A stretch of 64,000 nucleotides of DNA. Source: Patescibacteria group bacterium (GTDB taxonomy: Bacteria > Patescibacteriota > Minisyncoccia > Phycocordibacterales > UBA2100). The first letter of the stretch is position 1. The number at the start of each line of letters is the position of its first letter. The translations under genes and the position numbers were made by a program. The notes under the pieces are model-generated. The model was given only the letters and a program-made list of their open reading frames with translations, was not told the DNA's origin and made no database searches. Shown piece after piece: positions 26,272 to 61,930 of this stretch. Where the stretch lies: assembly GCA_038062075.1 (NCBI GenBank), contig JBBTXY010000003.1:17589-81588 (forward strand), in the 5' to 3' direction.

Positions 26272-27549
26272 GGAGGTGTGTTCTTTGTTTCGGATCGCGT
26301 ACCACAGATACCACGTAATGACGCACGACGCCGCATAGGTAAGCACTTGCCCGGCGACCGCGCCCCAGAGACCGAATGTCTTGATAAGAAGAAGAGCGCT
26401 TATCGCGGCAATGATGCTGGGGATGTTCCACAGATACAAGAGGCGTCTCGGGATGAGCGTGACGCGGGAATCAATAGCGGCACCCACGAGTGCAGTCCCG
26501 ACCTGGAGGAGGATCGTGATGGAAAAGAAGAGTGAGAGCGGGACGGCTTCGATGTATTGGGGGAAGAAGATAAAGTAAAACGGATATGCGAGCAGACAGT
26601 AGGCGAGCGTTATGCCAGCCCCCAGGATGAAGAGCACGCCGGTGCGCTTCATGAGGATGCTCTTGATGGCCGCAGTGCTCTGTCCTGCAAGTTTCGGCAG
26701 CGCAAGGATGGTCGGCGTATTCACGATGGTTCGCAGGTGGGAGACCGGTGCCATCGCGAATGCAAACAGTGCGAGTTCGGCAGCGCCGAGGTAATGGAAA
26801 ACGAGGATGGCGTCGAGTGACGATATCACGATGTTGGATGCGTTGATGGCGCTGGAGTGGAGCGCGTAGGAGAGCGCGCCGGGTTCGTTTGTGTCGTTTG
26901 AGGGGAATTTACGGAGCGTTATCTGCAGGGAAATATATCGTGTGAGCGTCCAGGCGCTGGCATACACTGCAAAGATAATAATGGGATTGTCGGTGAAGAA
27001 GAGTGTGGCGATAAGCGCCGCGGCAGCGGCGATCTGCCCGAGGACGCCAAGAATGCTTGAGAGCTTGAAATCTTTCTTCCCCACAAGAACCGCATTGAAT
27101 ATCCCAAACGGCTCCATGAAAGGAATGAAGAACGCCGCGAAGATGAGCCCAGTGCCAAGCGTATCGTTCCCGTTGTAGAAGTAGTACGCCGCGCCGCAGA
27201 GGGCGCCCAAGGAGCCGAGAAGGCTCCAGCGCATCTTCGCCCAGAGCCCCATCATGACCGTGCCGTCGTTCCCGCGTGCGGCACCCTGCGTGACGGCGGT
27301 GTCCATCCCGCGCAGACAGGCGACGCAGAAGATGCCGAAGAGGGTGAGAATGTATTTGTAGACGCCGTAATCGTGCTGGGTGAGAAGATTTGCAAAGGCA
27401 AGCGCAAGGAGAAATGAGACTGCGGCAGTTATAATGGAAGAACTTGAGAGCCAAAAACTGCCCCGCGCAAGGTAGACCATGTCGGTCCCGGTATATTTCT
27501 CGCTCCAGCGCAAGGCGCGCACGAGCTGTTCCTTCGAGTACCGATACAT
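26266..27549 (-). CDS. Wzx-like oligosaccharide flippase (MOP superfamily)
   Basis: 427 aa, ~12 TMS, polysaccharide-biosynthesis-protein pattern. Confidence 0.65.
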   Translation of the reverse strand: MYRYSKEQLVRALRWSEKYTGTDMVYLARGSFWLSSSSIITAAVSFLLALAFANLLTQHDYGVYKYILTLFGIFCVACLRGMDTAVTQGAARGNDGTVMMGLWAKMRWSLLGSLGALCGAAYYFYNGNDTLGTGLIFAAFFIPFMEPFGIFNAVLVGKKDFKLSSILGVLGQIAAAAALIATLFFTDNPIIIFAVYASAWTLTRYISLQITLRKFPSNDTNEPGALSYALHSSAINASNIVISSLDAILVFHYLGAAELALFAFAMAPVSHLRTIVNTPTILALPKLAGQSTAAIKSILMKRTGVLFILGAGITLAYCLLAYPFYFIFFPQYIEAVPLSLFFSITILLQVGTALVGAAIDSRVTLIPRRLLYLWNIPSIIAAISALLLIKTFGLWGAVAGQVLTYAASCVITWYLWYAIRNKEHTSS

Positions 27550-27639: not shown

Positions 27640-28140
27640 ATGCGCAAGCCAGATAGCAACTACGCGTTCATCGATGCGCAGAACGTGTACATGGGGACGA
27701 GGGCGACTGGATGGACGATAGACGCATTCAAACTCCGCGTGTATCTGCGCGAGACATTCGATGTTGAGCGCGCATATTGGTTCGTCGGTTTCCTATCAGA
27801 CATGCAAGACTTCTACACACTGCTTCAGCGCGCAGGATATGTGCTCATATTCAAGGAAGTATCGCGTGATCACGAAGGGACACCGAAAGGGAATGTCGAC
27901 GTCGACCTCACGCTTCATGCTGTGGATTTGCAGTCGGAGTACGACAAGGCTGTCCTCCTCACGAGCGATGGGGATTTCGCCAGTCTGGTGCGCTACTTAC
28001 GCGAGCGCGGCAAGCTTCGTGCGATCTTGAGCCCGAATCGCGCACGTACATCAAGACTCCTTCGCAAGGCGGTCGGCAGCAGTGCGAGCTTGCAGTATCT
28101 CGAAGATGCAAAACAAAAGATCGCACGCGCAGCGTTATGA
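27640..28140 (+). CDS. NYN/LabA-like (PIN-related) domain protein
   Basis: 'AFIDAQNV' ... 'VLLTSDGDF' NYN motifs. Confidence 0.65.
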   Translation: MRKPDSNYAFIDAQNVYMGTRATGWTIDAFKLRVYLRETFDVERAYWFVGFLSDMQDFYTLLQRAGYVLIFKEVSRDHEGTPKGNVDVDLTLHAVDLQSEYDKAVLLTSDGDFASLVRYLRERGKLRAILSPNRARTSRLLRKAVGSSASLQYLEDAKQKIARAAL

Positions 28141-51966: not shown

Positions 51967-53406
51967 ATGTCTTCCGGTATCACACGTAAGAAGTTTGTTA
52001 TACTCGGCGCGGGGCCTGCTGGCATGGGGGCTGCGTGGGAACTCCATACAAAGGGCGCGAAAGACATCACGGTCGTCGATCGCAACGACCGTGTCGGCGG
52101 TCTCGCACGCACGTTTACGTTCAAAGGCTATCGTTTCGATGTTGGGCCACACCGATTTCTGACGAAATATCCGGAAGTCGAAGTTCTGTGGAAGCAGCTC
52201 TTAGGCGACGACCTCTTGACCCGTCCGCGACTCACGCGCATTTATTATCGCGGACGTTTTTTTCTATATCCTCTCAAGATGGTGAACGCACTCTGGAATC
52301 TCGGATTTTGGCAGAGCATCCTCGCGGGCTTGAGTTTCCTGAAGGCGCAGATACTGTGGCGTGGGAAGGAGCCGAAGAATTTCGCCGAGTGGACCACGAA
52401 GACCTTCGGCAACCGGATGTCCCAGGCGTTTTTCCGGGACTATTTCAGGAAGGTGTGGGGGATAGGCGCGCACGAGGTCGGGATAGAGTGGGCCGGCCAG
52501 CGCATCAAAGGGATACGTATTCGTGATTTTTTTGGCAATAAGCTGAAAGAATTCGTCTGGCAGCAGAGGTCCGAGAATATCGGCAATCAGTTCTTGTATC
52601 CACGCCACGGTGCAGGGCAATTCTACGAAGCGATGAAACAGGAACTCGAGAGGGCCGGCGTGCATTTCAACCTCGGGCACGAGGTAGTCGCGGTGTGCCA
52701 CGAGGGCGAACATATCACTACGGTTGAAACCGAAGGACCGAATGGCGCGCACGAAATCTTCTCGGGCGACGTGTTCATATCGAGCATACCGGCGAATTTC
52801 CTCGTACAGTCACTCACGCCGGCAGTTTCTGCGAACGTGCTGGCTCTGACGGATACGATGCGTTTCCGTGCGCATATCGCGGTCAATATGATAATCAAAC
52901 GGAAGGATCTCTTTGCTGATTCGTGGTTCTATATCCAATCGTCCGAATTCCGCATCGCTCGCATCGGGAATTACGGCGCATTTAGCCCGGACATGTTGGG
53001 ACGGCCCGACACCTCCGCAATAGGGGTCGAATTCTTTTGCCACGCGGGCGATACGTTCTGGAAACAGAGCGACGAGGATATTATCGCACGTGCGGTAGAT
53101 GAATTGGTCCAGCTCGGGTTTATTGCGCGGGAAGAATTCGACGGCGCGTTCGTCGTCAGACATGCAGATGCATACCCGATGTATTACTTAGGGTATCGTG
53201 AGGAGTTCGCGCGCTTGCGGACGTATCTGGAAGGCTTTGAGAACTTACGGCTCACCGGCCGTGCGGGGATGTATAAGTACAAAGACCAAGATCACGCGCT
53301 CTATACGGGGATCCTGACGGTTCGGAACCTCTTCGGAGAGCATAACGACGTATGGGAGCTCGGAGAAGAAAAGGAATTTTTTGAAGAGAAAACAGTTTCT
53401 AAATGA
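51967..53406 (+). CDS. FAD-dependent oxidoreductase, copy 2
   Basis: 'KFVILGAGPAGMGAA...VVDRNDRVGG'; paralogue of 41246-42685. Confidence 0.65.
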   Translation: MSSGITRKKFVILGAGPAGMGAAWELHTKGAKDITVVDRNDRVGGLARTFTFKGYRFDVGPHRFLTKYPEVEVLWKQLLGDDLLTRPRLTRIYYRGRFFLYPLKMVNALWNLGFWQSILAGLSFLKAQILWRGKEPKNFAEWTTKTFGNRMSQAFFRDYFRKVWGIGAHEVGIEWAGQRIKGIRIRDFFGNKLKEFVWQQRSENIGNQFLYPRHGAGQFYEAMKQELERAGVHFNLGHEVVAVCHEGEHITTVETEGPNGAHEIFSGDVFISSIPANFLVQSLTPAVSANVLALTDTMRFRAHIAVNMIIKRKDLFADSWFYIQSSEFRIARIGNYGAFSPDMLGRPDTSAIGVEFFCHAGDTFWKQSDEDIIARAVDELVQLGFIAREEFDGAFVVRHADAYPMYYLGYREEFARLRTYLEGFENLRLTGRAGMYKYKDQDHALYTGILTVRNLFGEHNDVWELGEEKEFFEEKTVSK

Positions 53407-55658
53407 TGCCAAGTCCTTCCCGTGCTACAATCCTCTCCATGTTCGAAAAGGCATTGCGCACCATAGTCCTTGCGGGAGTGTTCGCGCTCCCGTTTCTCGT
53501 CCTCTACGTCTCGACGTCGCTCTTCTTTCCCTTCATTACGGGCAAGAATTTTGCCTTTCGCATCATCATCGAGATCATTGCCGGTGCATGGTTTTCTCTT
53601 GCACTAGTCAAGACCGAGTACCGGCCGCGGCGCTCGTGGCTTTTGTGGGCCTTCGCGGCCTTCGTACTTCTGATCGGTATTTCTGATATCTTCGGCGTCT
53701 ATCCGGAGAAGAGTTTTTGGAGCAACTATGAGCGCATGGAAGGGTGGGTGACGCTTGCGCATCTCTTTGTATATTTCGTCGTCGCGGTTTCGGTCCTCAA
53801 CACCGAGCGTCTCTGGAAGTACTGGTGGCACACGACACTTGGCGTCTCCGTCATCGTCGCTTGCATTGGTCTTTTCCAACTTGCGGGATGGGTCCCCATT
53901 AATCAAGGGGGAGCCCGCGTCGATGCGCGCATTGGGAACGCCACCTACCTCGGCGTCTACATGCTGTTCCATGTGTTCATGGCGGCGCTCTTTCTCGCAC
54001 GAGCGTGGGTTGAGCGGGCAAATGAGCGTACTCTGTACGTATCGCTCTATGGGGGAATCATTCTCCTCAATTCATTCGTTCTCTTTTTCACCGCGACGCG
54101 CGGCGCGATCTTAGGGCTCCTTGGCGGATTCCTCTTGAGTGGTCTCATTCTCATCCTACTTGCACCGCGCTCCCGCGTCGCATGGCGAGTTGGGAGCGTT
54201 ATTGCGGCGTTCATCATTCTTACAGGGGCGTTCTGGGCTGTGCGCGATCAGGCGTGGGTCCATCGGATAGAGCCCTTGCACCGCCTCGCGACCATTCTCT
54301 CCGACGGCACGACATTCTCGCGCTTCCTAAACTGGGGGATGGCCCTGCAAGGCTTCAAAGAGCGACCGATACTCGGCTGGGGTCAAGAGAATTATGCGGC
54401 GGTCTTCGACAAATACTACAACCCTGCCATGTACGCGCAGGAGCAGTGGTTCGACCGCACCCATAACATCATCTTTGATTGGCTCATCGCGGGCGGTATC
54501 CTCGGGCTTCTCGCATATTTCTCACTCTATCTTTTCGCACTCATCACTCTGTGGCGAAGCGGTCCGCCTGCGCGCGACGGATCGGGCGCGCGGTCAGGCG
54601 CATTCGCGCTGTATGAGCGCGCGATCCTCACCGGGCTCTTCGCAGGCTACTTCTTCTACCTCCTGTTCACCTTCGACAACATCACGAGCTACCTGCTCTT
54701 TATTTCGCTCTTGGCGTACATCGCGGCGCGCGCGACGGCGGGCGCGTCACCTCCGGTGCGCCCACCGATAACGCCGCTCTCACTCACGAGCTTGCCGATT
54801 GTAGTGGCAGTTATGCTTGTGGGAACGGGCGGGCTCGTGTGGTACGTGAATGCTGATGCGCTCGCCGCGAATCGGGCGCTCATCCAGGGACTTATGCCGT
54901 ATGCCGAAGGAGCATCGAAGAACCTTGCGTTTTTCGAGCAAGCGCTTGAGCGTGGGCATGGGAAGCAGGAAATACGCGAACAGTTCGCGCAGGCGGCGAT
55001 GAGCGTGATTGGTGCTCCCGGAGTGCCCAACGACTTGAAACAGCGTTTTGTACAGCGTGCGGCCGAGGAACTGGTGAAGCAGGCGAATGATGCGCCGCAA
55101 CACGCACGTGGCGCATTCTTTCTCGGCATCCTTCTTGATCGCGCCGGCGCATATGCGGACGCGAAACTGGCGCTTGAGCAAGCGCACGAGCGCTCACCAC
55201 AGAAACAAGGCGTTCTCTTCGAGTTTGGGTTGAATGCGTTCGCGCGCGGTGCAAACGACGAAGCACTTCAGTACTTTAAGTCGGCGTATGAAAGTGCGCC
55301 GCAGTATGCGGAAGCGTTTGCGTACTACGGTGCCGCGCTGATCCAAACGGGGCATGAGAAAGAAGCGGAGGAGCTTCTCGCGCCGTTGATAGGTACACGC
55401 ACTGCGGCGCATCAGCGCATCGCTGCCGCATATGCCGCTCGCGGGAAGTTCGATGCGATTATTGCTATCTGGAGTCCCTACATAGAGAAAAATCCTACCG
55501 ATTTCGACTCACGGCTTGTTATCGTCAGCGCATACTATTCCAAAGGAGACCGCGCGCGAGCGCTGCAGGAGCTTGAGCGTATGCGGCAGGAAATCCCCGG
55601 CGCAGCTGCGCAGATCGATGAACTGATCCGTCAGGCACAGAGCGGGGCGATACAGTAG
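53403..55658 (+). CDS. O-antigen ligase/polymerase-family (Wzy_C) membrane protein with C-terminal TPR domain
   Basis: 'FFTATRGAILGLLGG' Wzy_C motif; ~10 TMS; C-terminal ~250 aa of TPR-like Ala-rich repeats. Confidence 0.6.
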   Translation: MMPSPSRATILSMFEKALRTIVLAGVFALPFLVLYVSTSLFFPFITGKNFAFRIIIEIIAGAWFSLALVKTEYRPRRSWLLWAFAAFVLLIGISDIFGVYPEKSFWSNYERMEGWVTLAHLFVYFVVAVSVLNTERLWKYWWHTTLGVSVIVACIGLFQLAGWVPINQGGARVDARIGNATYLGVYMLFHVFMAALFLARAWVERANERTLYVSLYGGIILLNSFVLFFTATRGAILGLLGGFLLSGLILILLAPRSRVAWRVGSVIAAFIILTGAFWAVRDQAWVHRIEPLHRLATILSDGTTFSRFLNWGMALQGFKERPILGWGQENYAAVFDKYYNPAMYAQEQWFDRTHNIIFDWLIAGGILGLLAYFSLYLFALITLWRSGPPARDGSGARSGAFALYERAILTGLFAGYFFYLLFTFDNITSYLLFISLLAYIAARATAGASPPVRPPITPLSLTSLPIVVAVMLVGTGGLVWYVNADALAANRALIQGLMPYAEGASKNLAFFEQALERGHGKQEIREQFAQAAMSVIGAPGVPNDLKQRFVQRAAEELVKQANDAPQHARGAFFLGILLDRAGAYADAKLALEQAHERSPQKQGVLFEFGLNAFARGANDEALQYFKSAYESAPQYAEAFAYYGAALIQTGHEKEAEELLAPLIGTRTAAHQRIAAAYAARGKFDAIIAIWSPYIEKNPTDFDSRLVIVSAYYSKGDRARALQELERMRQEIPGAAAQIDELIRQAQSGAIQ

Positions 55659-55785
55659 CACGAAAAAGATCCACTGCGGAGGACGGGTGCGAGCTCCAAA
55701 AGTGAAAGTCAAATTGTGAGTGCCGCCGCCCTCCACAGTAGATCCTTCTTTCCCAAGTGTATCGACTTCCCATAAAAACGCAAAA

Positions 55786-55800
55786 CCCGCCGAAGGCGGG
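55786..55800 (-). terminator. Hairpin CCCGCC-gaa-GGCGGG with T-tract on minus strand
   Basis: On minus strand followed by TTTTGCGTTTTT; no annotated minus-strand ORF upstream. Confidence 0.35.
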
Positions 55801-56066
55801 ATCTGCGCGACTTTCTCTGGGCATCACATCTTTGTGACACTCACGTAGTTATCATAGCGCATCGAACTGGAAACGCAATCGTATGCATACTGATCTTTTC
55901 TTAGTTTCCATTTTTGATTTTTGTCTCTCTTTAGTTATCCACAGAAAAAATAAAAAACACATGCATGACGCACATAGAGTGCAATAATTCAGAAAACGCA
56001 TCAACATACGCAAAGCAACGATGCGGGTCGAATGTTTTAGTCCCTAGGGAAAACTAAAAAAATACT

Positions 56067-56117
56067 ATGGCCAAGAAAAAGAAGGCGAAGAAGGCAAAGA
56101 AGTCTCGCCGCCGATAA
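56067..56117 (+). CDS. 16-codon Lys/Arg-rich mini-ORF (MAKKKKAKKAKKSRRR) upstream of secA
   Basis: ATG..TAA intact, AGGGA 14 nt upstream, followed immediately by a strong terminator; too short for the ORF track. Confidence 0.3.
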   Translation: MAKKKKAKKAKKSRRR

Positions 56118-56137
56118 GACCTCCTCGGTCTATCCGA

Positions 56138-56170
56138 GAAGAACCCTCCTCTGGAGGGTTCTTCTCTTTT
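56138..56170 (+). terminator. Strong rho-independent terminator/attenuator
   Basis: 12-bp perfect stem GAAGAACCCTCC/GGAGGGTTCTTC, 3-nt loop, then TCTTTT. Confidence 0.65.
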
Positions 56171-56255
56171 GAGGCCAAACATTTTTTCAATGCAAAAACG
56201 TTCGTCCGATGAGTCGCCAAAGCGACTCGTTTAGGGTAGGATATTCCAACTGCAT

Positions 56256-58799
56256 ATGTCGTTTCTCAATCAATGGTTCGGAGATGGCTCCGGGAGCGCC
56301 TTACGCCGGGCCGAACCTATAGTCGGGAAGGTCAATGCTCTTGAGGAGAGTTTCAAAGTGCTCTCGGACGAGGCGCTGAAGGCGAAAACGACCGAATTTA
56401 AGGGGCGTCTCGAGAAAGGTGGGACCTTGGACGATCTTATGCCCGAGGCCTTTGCGGCGGTGCGGGAAGCCTCCCGCCGCACGCTTGGTCAGCGTCATTT
56501 CGATGTGCAGCTCATTGGCGGTGCGGTCTTGCACCAAGGCGGCATCGCAGAGATGCGCACCGGCGAAGGGAAGACCTTAGTCGCGACACTTCCAGCCTAT
56601 CTAAATGCACTCGAAGGGAAAGGCGTGCATGTCGTGACCGTGAACGACTACCTCTCGCGGCGCGATGCCGTGTGGATGGGACAGATCTACTGGGCGCTCG
56701 GGATGACGACTGCTGTCCTGAACCACGAAAGTTCGTTCCTCTACGATCCAAGCGCGGTACCGCAGGAAGAGAAGGCGGAAGATGAGAAGGTACAGGATGA
56801 ACTCGGCGCATTCAAGGTTGTGCATGAATTCCTCCGTCCCATCTCGCGCGAAGAAGCCTACGCGGCGGACATCACCTATGGAACCAACAACGAGTATGGT
56901 TTCGACTACTTGCGCGATAACCTTGAATACGAGCCGGGAAAGATCCGCCAAAAGCAGCACCACTTCGCTATTGTTGACGAAATTGACTCCATCTTGATCG
57001 ACGAAGCGCGCACGCCCCTCATCATCTCTGCGCCGGTTGCCGACGCCGAGGGTCTCTATCAGACATTCGCGCAGATCGCTACGACGATGAAAGAAGACGA
57101 AGATTATACTGTCGAGCATAAGCATCGCGCCATCATCATGACCGACGCGGGCATCGAGAAAGCCGAAGCAGCGCTTGGTCTTGGCTCCATCTACACCGAT
57201 GCCGGTATCAAGTATGTGCACCATCTGGAGACGGCCGTGCGCGGGAAGGCCCTGTTCCAGCGCGATAAGGAATATGTCGTGCGGGGCGGGGAAGTCATCA
57301 TCGTGGATGAATTCACGGGCCGCATGCAGCCAGGCAGACGCTGGAGTGAAGGCTTGCACCAGGCGATCGAGGCCAAAGAAGGCGTCGCCATACAAAAAGA
57401 GAGCCGCACGTTCGCGTCCATCACGTTCCAGAATTATTTCCGTCTTTACACGAAGCTTGCCGGGATGACGGGCACTGCCGCGACCTCTTCGGAAGAGTTC
57501 TTCAAGGTCTATGGGTTGACGACCGTCGCCATCCCAACGAACAAGCCGCCGAAGCGCGTTGATCACGATGACATGATGTTCCAATCGGAGAGCGGGAAGA
57601 TGCACGCGATCGCGAAGCGCGTCAAAGACCTGCACGAAAAAGGGCAGCCCGTCCTCGTCGGCACCGTTTCCGTCGAGAAGAACGAACTTCTCTCCACCCA
57701 TTTCAAACAAGCAGGTATCCCGCACGAACTTCTCAACGCGAAGAACCACGAGCGGGAAGGCGAGATCATCGCACAGGCCGGACGCAGGGGCGCCGTCGTC
57801 ATCGCGACGAATATGGCCGGCCGCGGCGTCGACATCAAGCTTGGAGGAAATCCGGCAACTGACGAGCAGTATGAGGAAGTGAGAAACGCAGGCGGTCTTT
57901 TCGTCCTCGGCACGGAGCGGCACGAAGCGCGGCGCATTGACAATCAGCTGCGCGGCCGTGCTGGCCGCCAAGGAGATCCTGGTGAGACGCAATTCTTCGT
58001 TTCCCTCGAAGATTCGCTGATGAAGATATTCGCCTCTGATGTTATCAAGCGAGTGATGGGCACCTTCAAGATCCCCGAAGACGAGCCTATTTACAATTCG
58101 ATGATAACGAAATCGTTGGAGCGTGCGCAGACGAGGATCGAGGAGATGAATTTCGATTCGCGCAAACATGTGCTTGCCTACGACGACGTCTTGAACGTGC
58201 AGCGCAAGAGCATCTACGAGCGTCGCCGCGCTCTTCTTGTTGGCGGCAACGAGACCGTCGATGGAGAACTCGGCCGCGTCGCGGAATTCATTCTCGAAGA
58301 GAAAGACGCGTGGAGGGGAAAGATCCAAGAACTAAAAACTAAGAACGGGGAAGCATTTTATCCCGCTGTGAGGCGTTTACTTCTGCAAACCGTCGATCTT
58401 CTGTGGGTCGAGCACCTCGAAGCGATGGAATACCTGCGCTCCTCGGTGAACCTGCGCGCGTACGGCCAGCGCGATCCTTTGGTGGAATACAAGAAAGAAG
58501 GCCTGCGCCTTTTCCAAGGGATGGAAGCATCCTACACGTTGCACGTTGCCTCAACTGTGCCTGGCCTGTTCGGAGCGCAACAGCGCGAAGGCCTGCCTGC
58601 CGCAGTCTTGACGAAGGCGGGGGAAGTCGTGCAAAAAGCTGCGCAATCTATTACCGCATCGCACGTGCACACCGGCATCAAAAAATACGGCCGCAACGAC
58701 AAGGTCACCATCACCGACGGCACGACGACGCAGGAAATGAAATTCAAGAAGGCAGAGCGGCTCTTACAAACTGGTCAGTGGAAAATTGTTGAGCGTTGA
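56256..58799 (+). CDS. secA: Preprotein translocase ATPase SecA (short form, no C-terminal zinc finger)
   Basis: 'RTGEGKTLVATLPAYLNAL', DEAD-like 'IVDEIDSILIDEARTPLIIS', 'TNMAGRGVDIKLGG'. Confidence 0.95.
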   Translation: MSFLNQWFGDGSGSALRRAEPIVGKVNALEESFKVLSDEALKAKTTEFKGRLEKGGTLDDLMPEAFAAVREASRRTLGQRHFDVQLIGGAVLHQGGIAEMRTGEGKTLVATLPAYLNALEGKGVHVVTVNDYLSRRDAVWMGQIYWALGMTTAVLNHESSFLYDPSAVPQEEKAEDEKVQDELGAFKVVHEFLRPISREEAYAADITYGTNNEYGFDYLRDNLEYEPGKIRQKQHHFAIVDEIDSILIDEARTPLIISAPVADAEGLYQTFAQIATTMKEDEDYTVEHKHRAIIMTDAGIEKAEAALGLGSIYTDAGIKYVHHLETAVRGKALFQRDKEYVVRGGEVIIVDEFTGRMQPGRRWSEGLHQAIEAKEGVAIQKESRTFASITFQNYFRLYTKLAGMTGTAATSSEEFFKVYGLTTVAIPTNKPPKRVDHDDMMFQSESGKMHAIAKRVKDLHEKGQPVLVGTVSVEKNELLSTHFKQAGIPHELLNAKNHEREGEIIAQAGRRGAVVIATNMAGRGVDIKLGGNPATDEQYEEVRNAGGLFVLGTERHEARRIDNQLRGRAGRQGDPGETQFFVSLEDSLMKIFASDVIKRVMGTFKIPEDEPIYNSMITKSLERAQTRIEEMNFDSRKHVLAYDDVLNVQRKSIYERRRALLVGGNETVDGELGRVAEFILEEKDAWRGKIQELKTKNGEAFYPAVRRLLLQTVDLLWVEHLEAMEYLRSSVNLRAYGQRDPLVEYKKEGLRLFQGMEASYTLHVASTVPGLFGAQQREGLPAAVLTKAGEVVQKAAQSITASHVHTGIKKYGRNDKVTITDGTTTQEMKFKKAERLLQTGQWKIVER

Positions 58800-61815: not shown

Positions 61816-61870
61816 AAAAGAGATATTGACACATCAGTTATCTCGTTGGATACCCAACAATATCTTTTTT
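61815..61870 (+). promoter_or_regulatory. Consensus -35 TTGACA (61826-61831) bracketed by inverted repeat AAAAAAGAGATATTG / CAATATCTTTTTT
   Basis: Lies between tnpA stop and HTH gene 61931; either IS right-end hairpin or operator/promoter. Confidence 0.35.
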
Positions 61871-61930
61871 AGCCTTATTCTTGCTGCCGAGATTCTCCAC
61901 AGGGGCGGTCAATGAGTAGAGACAACCTGC

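Follow-up and report, generated by a model that had tools for sequence, protein, structure and literature searches.

Whether a lysine-rich frame of 16 codons before secA serves the expression of secA or is a gene in its own right is the question raised by a stretch of 64,000 nucleotides (nt) from a Patescibacteria group bacterium (assembly GCA_038062075.1, contig JBBTXY010000003.1, positions 17,589 to 81,588), which is referred to here, at its full length, as the window. The frame (the mini-ORF, for open reading frame) lies in a spacer of 597 nt (55659-56255) between an upstream ORF of 751 amino acids (aa; 53403-55658) and secA (56256-58799), and the G+C fraction is 0.37-0.39 at 55800-56100, as compared with about 0.54 for the window. 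The comparison of this locus with its relatives favors, with a probability of about 0.6, a reading in which the mini-ORF is translated as a micro-gene of its own, with a polycationic product that acts in trans, and is present in Kaiserbacteria-like bacteria of the candidate phyla radiation (CPR); it would then be among the shortest free-standing bacterial genes known. The 597-bp spacer is made up of three separate units, being a hairpin small-RNA gene on the minus strand, the mini-ORF unit, and the promoter-like -10 box of secA. An earlier interpretation of the same letters (the sequence-only reading) had described a 600-bp leader of secA; the AT-rich spacer is indeed present, but three transcription units plus promoters are found in place of a leader. 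The features are listed in the table below.

The 16-residue poly-lysine frame noticed in the sequence-only reading is confirmed, encoding MAKKKKAKKAKKSRRR (ATG GCC AAG AAA AAG AAG GCG AAG AAG GCA AAG AAG TCT CGC CGC CGA TAA). It is the sole ATG-initiated ORF of 10-30 aa with at least 50% lysine in the 64 kilobases (kb), and 20 shuffles of the sequence give none. Its occurrence is confirmed to be far more than chance, and it is also conserved in relatives. The unbiased sample for this comparison consists of nine SecA-anchored loci, chosen without presupposing the ORF. In all six of the genome loci, where SecA is 68-80% identical to that of the window, a frame of 14-16 codons (MAKKKKAKKAKK..RR or MAAKKKKKAKKKHR) is found upstream of secA, and three further SecA-anchored loci, one of them the complete genome CP066682.1, also have the frame (MAKKKKKASKKKRR, MAKKKKAKKKKRL and MAKKKKAKKKAKRSKRR). 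Conservation before secA in relatives, which had been proposed as one way to check the observation, is therefore seen in 9/9 loci as a MAKKKK... frame of 13-17 codons, and this frame is uncalled in the public annotations of these contigs. The SecA homologue search gave only relatives with at least 72% identity, many of those at 72-89% being named Kaiserbacteria. By its SecA relatives the window belongs to Candidatus Kaiserbacteria / Paceibacterota, and the SecA identical to its own is on record as the protein of a Patescibacteria metagenome-assembled genome.

A metagenome scan with an ORF pattern returned 92 stretches, about 70 of which are family frames of 12-18 codons, the remaining ones being N-termini of ordinary proteins or out-of-frame matches; the family set comprises 64 distinct ORF DNA sequences and 39 distinct peptides, and the loci L040-L131 stem from Hainich and JGI samples of groundwater or soil. 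Synteny with secA holds down to about 55-60% SecA identity, and it is the neighborhood as a whole that is syntenic, with a gene for a Wzy_C/TPR membrane protein, the small RNA, the mini-ORF, secA and gatB. The mini-ORF is also found in three loci (L069, L096 and L130; MAKKKKKGGKKKRR and similar) in which tRNA genes replace secA downstream, as identified with Rfam in L069 and as tRNA-like by eye in L096 and L130, so that the peptide gene extends beyond the secA-linked clade. These three loci have the Shine-Dalgarno (SD)-like sequence AGGGAGAC and a different 5' hairpin, and there is no DnaA box within 170 nt of the mini-ORF. In another lineage (L068:2700-2920), the mini-ORF is preceded by a tRNA gene and a Wzy_C/TPR gene and has a canonical SD sequence (GAGAGGAGGTGA) 7 nt before the ATG; its leader contains a perfect 13-bp long-range stem (ACCCCGUUAGAAG / CUUCUAACGGGGU) and is of a type distinct from the A-type and B-type leaders described below.

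The codon pattern of the family apparently points to translation of the mini-ORF. When considering the 472 interior codons of the 64 distinct ORFs, which are those not fixed by the search pattern, the counts are 243 for AAG, 52 for AAA, and 77, 21, 18 and 15 for GCA, GCG, GCC and GCT, respectively, together with a few glycine, serine, threonine, arginine and valine codons. Acidic (GAN) codons are absent (0/472), as compared with about 79 expected from the pooled base composition, and selection for purines alone cannot explain this absence because G is a purine, so that GAG and GAA would be allowed. The third positions of the alanine codons vary freely, AAG and AAA interchange, the length differences among the family ORFs are all whole codons, and the stops are TAA or TAG. 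Each ORF has 8-13 lysine codons among its 12-18 codons. The 39 peptides are built only from M, A, K, R, G, S, T, H and V, with no hydrophobic stretch; lysine plus arginine account for 64-71% of the residues, and the remainder is almost only alanine, glycine, serine and threonine. A programmed -1 frameshift at G AAA AAG was also considered and was rejected, the -1 frame having stops in 11 of the 64 ORFs and not being conserved.

The upstream regions align as conserved blocks with variable spacers between them. One of these is the -10 block, GTGCAATAAT (55979-55988 in the window) or TTCGATACT in the second subfamily, containing the extended -10-like element TGCAATAAT, and from its position we infer a transcription start of the mini-ORF RNA near 55995. 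Another is the DnaA box, whose 9-mer TTATCCACA at 55935-55943 is the only perfect DnaA-box match in the 64 kb. It lies at about -52 to -60, with its centre about 56 nt upstream of the predicted start, the spacing between box and -10 element is fixed at 36-39 nt in A-type and B-type loci, and 61/76 loci have the box no more than 200 nt before the mini-ORF. Given a perfect DnaA box at this promoter, transcription would probably be tuned by DnaA.

This 9-mer also occurs elsewhere. The related loci, 734 kb in total, have 83 perfect copies. Of these, 58 precede the mini-ORF by 100-190 nt, and the other 25, all in the same orientation, compare with about 6 expected. Several of these extra copies stand in what look like promoters of other genes and always share the direction of the gene concerned (in mini-ORF-strand coordinates, L004:10411, L005:11087, L006:10850, L058:10119, L062:9245 and L097:7297, those of L058, L062 and L097 referring to the reverse-complemented sequence). 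Two to three box-like repeats cluster before an HTH_17-like gene downstream of gatB, and a degenerate counterpart of these downstream repeats is found in the window at 61830-61905. By its enrichment at other promoters, TTATCCACA appears as a recurrent promoter-proximal element in these genomes, and the extra copies suggest a small regulon of DnaA, or of another protein that binds the DnaA box. DnaA is an established transcription factor (PMC11317965), with which the recurrence of this candidate binding site fits.

The predicted window transcript (55995-56172) folds with a z score of -4.7, and in this fold the start region of the mini-ORF, which is A/U-rich, is unpaired. The 5' untranslated regions (UTRs) are of two main types. 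In 33 of 33 distinct A-type sequences the 5'-terminal hairpin is closed by CGCA/UGCG, with inner stems that differ (mean z score -2.3); RNAalifold on a MAFFT alignment of the A-type 5' UTRs gave three pairs, the inner stem being misaligned, and single-sequence folds are used instead. The B-type 5' UTR, found where SecA is about 57-66% identical, consists of helix P1 (GCAUCG/CGAUGC, enclosing GGUCGAA), a long helix P2, and a helix P3 just before the AUG. Of its cells, 88.5% are paired, and 13 of 20 pairs show compensatory changes, as counted in an unfitted alignment; none of 500 shuffles reaches the observed values, and no slid register comes close. The covariance model of the B-type leader has 28 matches in 863 kb, all directly upstream of the mini-ORF, and gives no match to the A-type window. 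Two sequence motifs recur in both settings: in most loci GGTCGA precedes the ATG by 25-45 nt, and in the B-type leaders it lies inside P1, whereas CCUAGG is found again at the P2 apex. A pairing of GGUCG with the region of the start codon was discarded, only four weak pairs remaining when codon 2 is GCA. The reading of GGGUCGAA as a transfer-messenger RNA (tmRNA)-like or T-arm-like element was discarded as well, there being no tRNA-like 3' end, an AUG start being present, and ARAGORN finding no tRNA or tmRNA.

Downstream of the frame, every one of the distinct sequences (66/66) has a terminator-like hairpin and T-tail, the hairpin energy averaging -20 kcal/mol in the family and being -24.4 kcal/mol in the window. 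In the window this hairpin begins 18 nt after the mini-ORF stop, and 85 nt separate its end from the ATG of secA at 56256. The sequence-only reading had placed here a 12-bp-stem hairpin with a U-tract (56138-56170) about 85 nt before secA; hairpin, U-tract and distance are as described, and the stem is longer, being a perfect 14 bp that begins at 56136. A simple terminator scan missed this hairpin because its T-run consists of four rather than five T. Between stop and terminator, conserved motifs are also seen in the relatives, such as the hairpin UUCUCUAG-n-CUAGAGAA of A-type loci (e.g. L004, L051, L058 and L094) and the single-stranded AUCCUCUCGAAAGAAAA of B-type 3' UTRs (L066 and L090), and CUAG-containing palindromes recur in both UTRs. 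Rfam (Rfam 15) gives nothing at gathering score in the window, with only subthreshold, chance-level matches in 55600-56300, and no family for the leader, the mini-ORF transcript or the hairpin small RNA when the window, the spacer and 13 related loci are considered; a poly-lysine ORF upstream of secA is not described in the literature that was searched. The mini-ORF unit, with its DnaA-box promoter, structured leader, frame of 12-18 codons and terminator, is thus not described in Rfam or in the searched literature.

The region between the terminator and secA bears on the relation of the two genes. Of the distinct sequences, 49/51 have a TAnnnT hexamer with its end 6-13 nt upstream of the secA start codon, and its variants (TAGGAT, TATAGT, TATTGT, TACTAT and TAAAAT) keep the -10 positions but not the core of an SD sequence. 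Among the gene starts of the window, a TAnnnT box is found 5-13 nt before the start codon in 17/51 (for example at 27640, 28341, 47499 and 51967, and at 27549 on the minus strand) and an SD-like motif in 16/51. With many such boxes and few SD-like motifs, leaderless transcription seems common in this genome, and the secA mRNA is probably leaderless or nearly so, being made from the putative promoter just before its start codon. In various genomes other genes are present between terminator and secA, and these are PaaX-like, kinase-like, GIY-YIG and IS200-like transposase ORFs, as named by eye from the sequence, with no family scan. Genes resembling GIY-YIG nucleases and IS200/REP-type transposases directly follow the terminator at L067:2815-3165, L100:12979-13578 and L114:2035-2727, in coordinates of the mini-ORF strand, and with such mobile-element genes the site right after the terminator is seemingly one where insertions are tolerated. 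In CP066682.1 a 99-aa ORF with a T-box leader lies between the mini-ORF terminator and secA (L132:2357-2561; 60 bits, E 6e-11, below the gathering score of 93). In L048 the mini-ORF is followed by an HPF-like ORF, named from its N-terminal sequence and not scanned.

It is against this background that the cis-acting explanations can be weighed. In the sequence-only reading, the unit was likened to a leader peptide with attenuator of the SecM-secA kind. As an attenuator, sensing of lysyl-tRNA or stalling on the poly-lysine codons would set the read-through into secA, and this is suggested by the order of ORF, hairpin(s), terminator and gene, which resembles that of classical attenuators, by the richness of the ORF in lysine codons, by the position of secA, which is on the same strand and 50-150 nt after the mini-ORF stop in 52/63 loci, and by the depth of the synteny. 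Such a mechanism requires the terminator to be opened, yet the search across the mini-ORF sequences finds no competing alternative structure that could act as antiterminator: upstream pairing of the 5' arm of the terminator, with the ORF included, gains a mean of -2.65 kcal/mol, equal to that of shuffled arms, as compared with -20 kcal/mol for the terminator itself (in the window, -1.1 versus -24.4 kcal/mol). A ribosome at the stop codon would also not reach the terminator stem 18 nt downstream. The -10-like box of secA, the genes inserted before it, the lineages in which the mini-ORF has no secA downstream, and the function of secA, which is unrelated to the supply of lysine, all argue in the same direction, and, because the whole neighborhood is syntenic, the adjacency to secA is no more specific than the adjacency to the upstream gene. 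An attenuator is therefore considered unlikely. A secretion monitor, in which an arrest peptide like SecM, MifM or VemP up-regulates secA, would, like the attenuator, fit a location immediately before secA and on its strand, but it is extremely improbable for a peptide that contains no hydrophobic residue beyond methionine and alanine, hence no signal or transmembrane segment for the translocon, and that at 12-18 aa is shorter than the ribosomal exit tunnel. In addition, the downstream element is a terminator and not a helix that sequesters an SD sequence, and secA lacks an SD sequence and has its own -10-like box. That the mini-ORF is a switch for secA, of either kind, is not supported.

Two further explanations take the frame to be of little or no importance. 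It is conceivable that the transcript is a non-coding or dual-function small RNA, whose purine tract and helices are functional and whose frame is incidental or serves pioneer translation. The transcript is short, highly structured, and ended by a terminator without a downstream gene, its 5' and 3' UTRs are conserved, codons 3-6 are near-fixed as nucleotides, the codon usage is atypical, and a second conserved small RNA adjoins the unit. This would leave unexplained the absence of acidic codons, which does not follow from purine selection, and the freedom of the third positions of the alanine codons; the ATG and an in-frame stop are kept in all nine unbiased loci, one lineage (L068) has a canonical SD sequence, and the start region is A/U-rich and unpaired, so that a small RNA without a meaningful frame is regarded as improbable. 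The perfect, invariant DnaA box beside AT-rich, repeat-containing sequence could also mark a chromosomal replication origin, with the mini-ORF as an incidental feature. This is very improbable: the spacer contains a single box within one mismatch, the cumulative GC skew rises steadily and without a switch over all 64 kb, the genes on either side have the same orientation, the box is at a fixed distance to the -10 element, and the same 9-mer is found in the same orientation upstream of other genes.

The reading of the mini-ORF as a very small basic protein gene, which had been the other suggestion of the sequence-only reading, fits everything found, the ribosomal or nucleoid partner being the part that is conjectural. 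Several points nevertheless weigh against an independent gene with a defined product. The search pattern fixes the start, four lysine codons and the C-terminal codons, which leaves the interior codons and the nine SecA-anchored loci as the only unbiased data. Across the family, codons 3-6 are AAG AAA AAG AAG with little variation, and the mini-ORF usage (82% AAG, GCA preferred) differs from that of the window genes (54% AAG, GCG preferred), which indicates selection at the level of nucleotides or of expression besides that on the peptide sequence. Indels of three nucleotides could arise by slippage alone in an (AAG)n-like tract. The low complexity and the length of 12-18 aa fit a generic polycation better than a defined ribosomal pocket. 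The adjacency to secA in 52/63 loci, on the same strand and within 150 nt, leaves room for some coupling, and TTATCCACA may be a general promoter-associated site and not a specific control of the mini-ORF.

The minus strand of the spacer carries the other conserved RNA. A covariance match at 55651-55754 scores 96 bits on the minus strand, as compared with 22 bits on the plus strand, and one copy per locus is found in 59 loci of both subfamilies. Compensatory changes are seen in 11/29 and in 11/25 pairs, the apical core (GCACUCACA...UGGAGCUCG) being invariant and the lower stem covarying; at the position of the -10-like hexamer, relatives have GTGATACACT or GTGGTACGCT. The sequence-only reading had noted a minus-strand hairpin with a T-tract at 55786-55800 and had supposed that an antisense small RNA ends there. 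The hairpin is real and an antisense small RNA exists, but this RNA starts beyond the hairpin and does not end at it. Hairpin, small-RNA promoter and small RNA form a block (55660-55800) that has, relative to secA, the orientation of the window in about 11 loci and the opposite one in 27, as found when comparing with L001, L004-L006 and L046, and in either class the hairpin stands before the promoter. In the other orientation class, the terminator hairpin lies directly after the upstream Wzy_C/TPR gene; as the block is inverted in the window, the hairpin here points away from the upstream gene. Six loci (L001, L046, L079, L098, L058 and L106) contain, about 30 nt past the small RNA, a partial copy in inverted orientation, GGACGGGTGCGAGCTC, which could have mediated the inversions of the block. 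A pairing of 7 bp between the small-RNA loop and the mini-ORF mRNA (UUAGGAC with GUCCUAG), noticed by eye in some B-type loci, is absent from L066, L070 and L120, which have a different small-RNA loop, and is attributed to chance.

Table. Features of the spacer upstream of secA and their coordinates in the window
Feature	Coordinates	Strand	Basis
Hairpin small-RNA gene, ~90 nt, ending in a U-run	~55748 to 55664	-	Covariance model, compensatory changes
-10-like hexamer TACACT, putative small-RNA promoter	55756-55761	-	~7 nt before the hairpin base, 25-locus alignment
Terminator-like hairpin CCCGCCTTCGGCGGG + TTTTGCGTTT	55776-55800	-	Terminator scan
DnaA box AGTTATCCACA	55933-55943	+	Perfect consensus TTATCCACA at 55935-55943; box invariant in alignment A1
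Extended -10-like element TGCAATAAT, putatively for the mini-ORF transcript	55980-55988	+	Conserved block in A-type and B-type loci
5'-terminal stem-loop, CGCAUC (55997-56002) / GAUGCG (56020-56025)	55997-56025	+	A-type folds; window transcript fold
GGTCGA motif (GCGGGTCGA at 56023-56031)	56026-56031	+	Invariant in A1
Hairpin UUUUAGU / ACUAAAA with CCCUAGGG in the loop	56034-56059	+	Predicted transcript fold; window and nearest relatives
Mini-ORF, 16 codons plus stop, MAKKKKAKKAKKSRRR	56067-56117	+	Frame read directly; conserved in relatives; coding signature
Small hairpin H1 overlapping the stop codon	56113-56134	+	Folds; hairpin of differing sequence at the same place in relatives
Intrinsic terminator, 14-bp perfect stem, 3-nt loop, UUUUG	56136-56170	+	Inverted repeat 56136-56149 / 56153-56166
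7-bp hairpin GAGTCGC / GCGACTC	56211-56228	+	Fold; shared with the closest relative only (L083)
TAGGAT, putative -10-like box of secA, 13 nt before the ATG	56237-56242	+	Conserved TAnnnT
secA, 847 aa	56256-58799	+	ORF list; homologues with SecA Pfam domains, named SecA of Kaiserbacteria or Patescibacteria

Taken as an independent micro-gene, the mini-ORF would work as follows. From its own promoter, with the extended -10 element and, centred about 56 nt before the start, the DnaA box, an RNA of about 175-230 nt would be made that opens with the 5'-terminal stem-loop and conserved single-stranded motifs. A 5' UTR structured in this way would lend itself to stabilizing the RNA or to feedback control as in ribosomal protein operons. 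The A/U-rich, unstructured start region, the 12-18 codons and the strong intrinsic terminator would follow, and secA would be transcribed separately, from the -10 box just before its start codon. The product is predicted to be an oligo-lysine/alanine peptide ending in arginine, with about 70% lysine plus arginine, which may act in trans as a polycation on nucleic acid; its most likely target would be the ribosome or rRNA, in the manner of bS22/eL41, bL37 and Thx, with DNA as the alternative. Binding of rRNA or DNA by charge appears to be the most economical reading of the peptide. The more complete proposal, by which an oligolysine gene under the control of a DnaA box, in Kaiserbacteria and their relatives, is the shortest conserved protein-coding gene acting in trans that has been described in bacteria, with a ribosomal or nucleoid polycation as its product and feedback through the 5' UTR, is put forward tentatively, the odds being somewhat against it as a whole.

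A conserved gene of 12-18 codons across a CPR clade, having a promoter, a leader and a terminator, would extend the lower limit of gene size, and genes as short as this one escape gene callers and stay invisible to annotation. CPR cells have reduced ribosomes and few regulators, and the peptide is a candidate for a missing component that neutralizes or organizes nucleic acids. The ribosomes of CPR bacteria lack uL30 as well as other proteins, and uS19 of Parcubacteria carries an extension rich in alanine and lysine (PMC9297842); no structure of a CPR ribosome was found in the searched literature. If the proposal is correct, the oligolysine might occupy an rRNA pocket that is empty because ribosomal proteins such as uL30 are missing, or it might substitute for polyamines in ultra-small cells. 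Other regulatory features come to light at this locus as well, being a DnaA-box element that several promoters share, a putative promoter of the leaderless type for secA, and another conserved small RNA.

When compared with known systems, the mini-ORF has in common with the trpL, hisL, pheL and thrL attenuators a short ORF containing consecutive codons of one type, hairpins, a terminator and a gene on the same strand; it differs from this type in having no mutually exclusive antiterminator, a downstream gene that is unrelated to lysine and has its own promoter-like element, and insertions between the two. With SecM-secA, MifM-yidC2 and VemP-secDF2 it shares an upstream ORF beside a gene of the export machinery, whereas the signal or membrane segment, the arrest motif and the SD-sequestering helix are absent, and the mini-ORF is about one tenth the size. 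DnaA-regulated promoters, such as those of dnaA, nrdAB and sda, resemble that of the mini-ORF by having the consensus TTATCCACA at a fixed promoter-proximal position, and sda of Bacillus subtilis is a DnaA target that encodes a small protein; here the motif stands before several genes, so that a wider regulon or another factor is possible. The lysine/alanine composition of the peptide is like that of the histone-H1-like Hc1 and Hc2 of Chlamydia and of AlgP-type tails, and compositions of the AKKAKK type are typical of DNA-condensing tails, but those proteins exceed 100 aa, with domains or long repeats, whereas the mini-ORF encodes a single peptide of 12-18 aa.

The comparison with the tiny basic ribosomal proteins bS22/eL41, bL37 and Thx concerns both the gene and its product. 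These proteins, which had been overlooked in annotation before cryo-EM revealed them, bind rRNA pockets by charge (PMC10618245, PMC5876184); bL37 has 24 aa (PMC5876184), bS22 is 61% lysine plus arginine, and eL41 has about 24 aa (PMC10618245). At 24-33 aa they have a defined, conserved sequence and a helix, whereas the mini-ORF peptide is of 12-18 aa, of low complexity and variable in length, and the DnaA-box promoter and elaborate 5' UTR of the mini-ORF are not described for their genes. Like the mini-ORF, these genes are free-standing, lie below the length used in gene calling and are often unannotated, and the combination of a very short product (at most 35 aa), more than 50% lysine plus arginine, and a free-standing gene is also that of the mini-ORF, with 12-18 aa and 64-71% lysine plus arginine.

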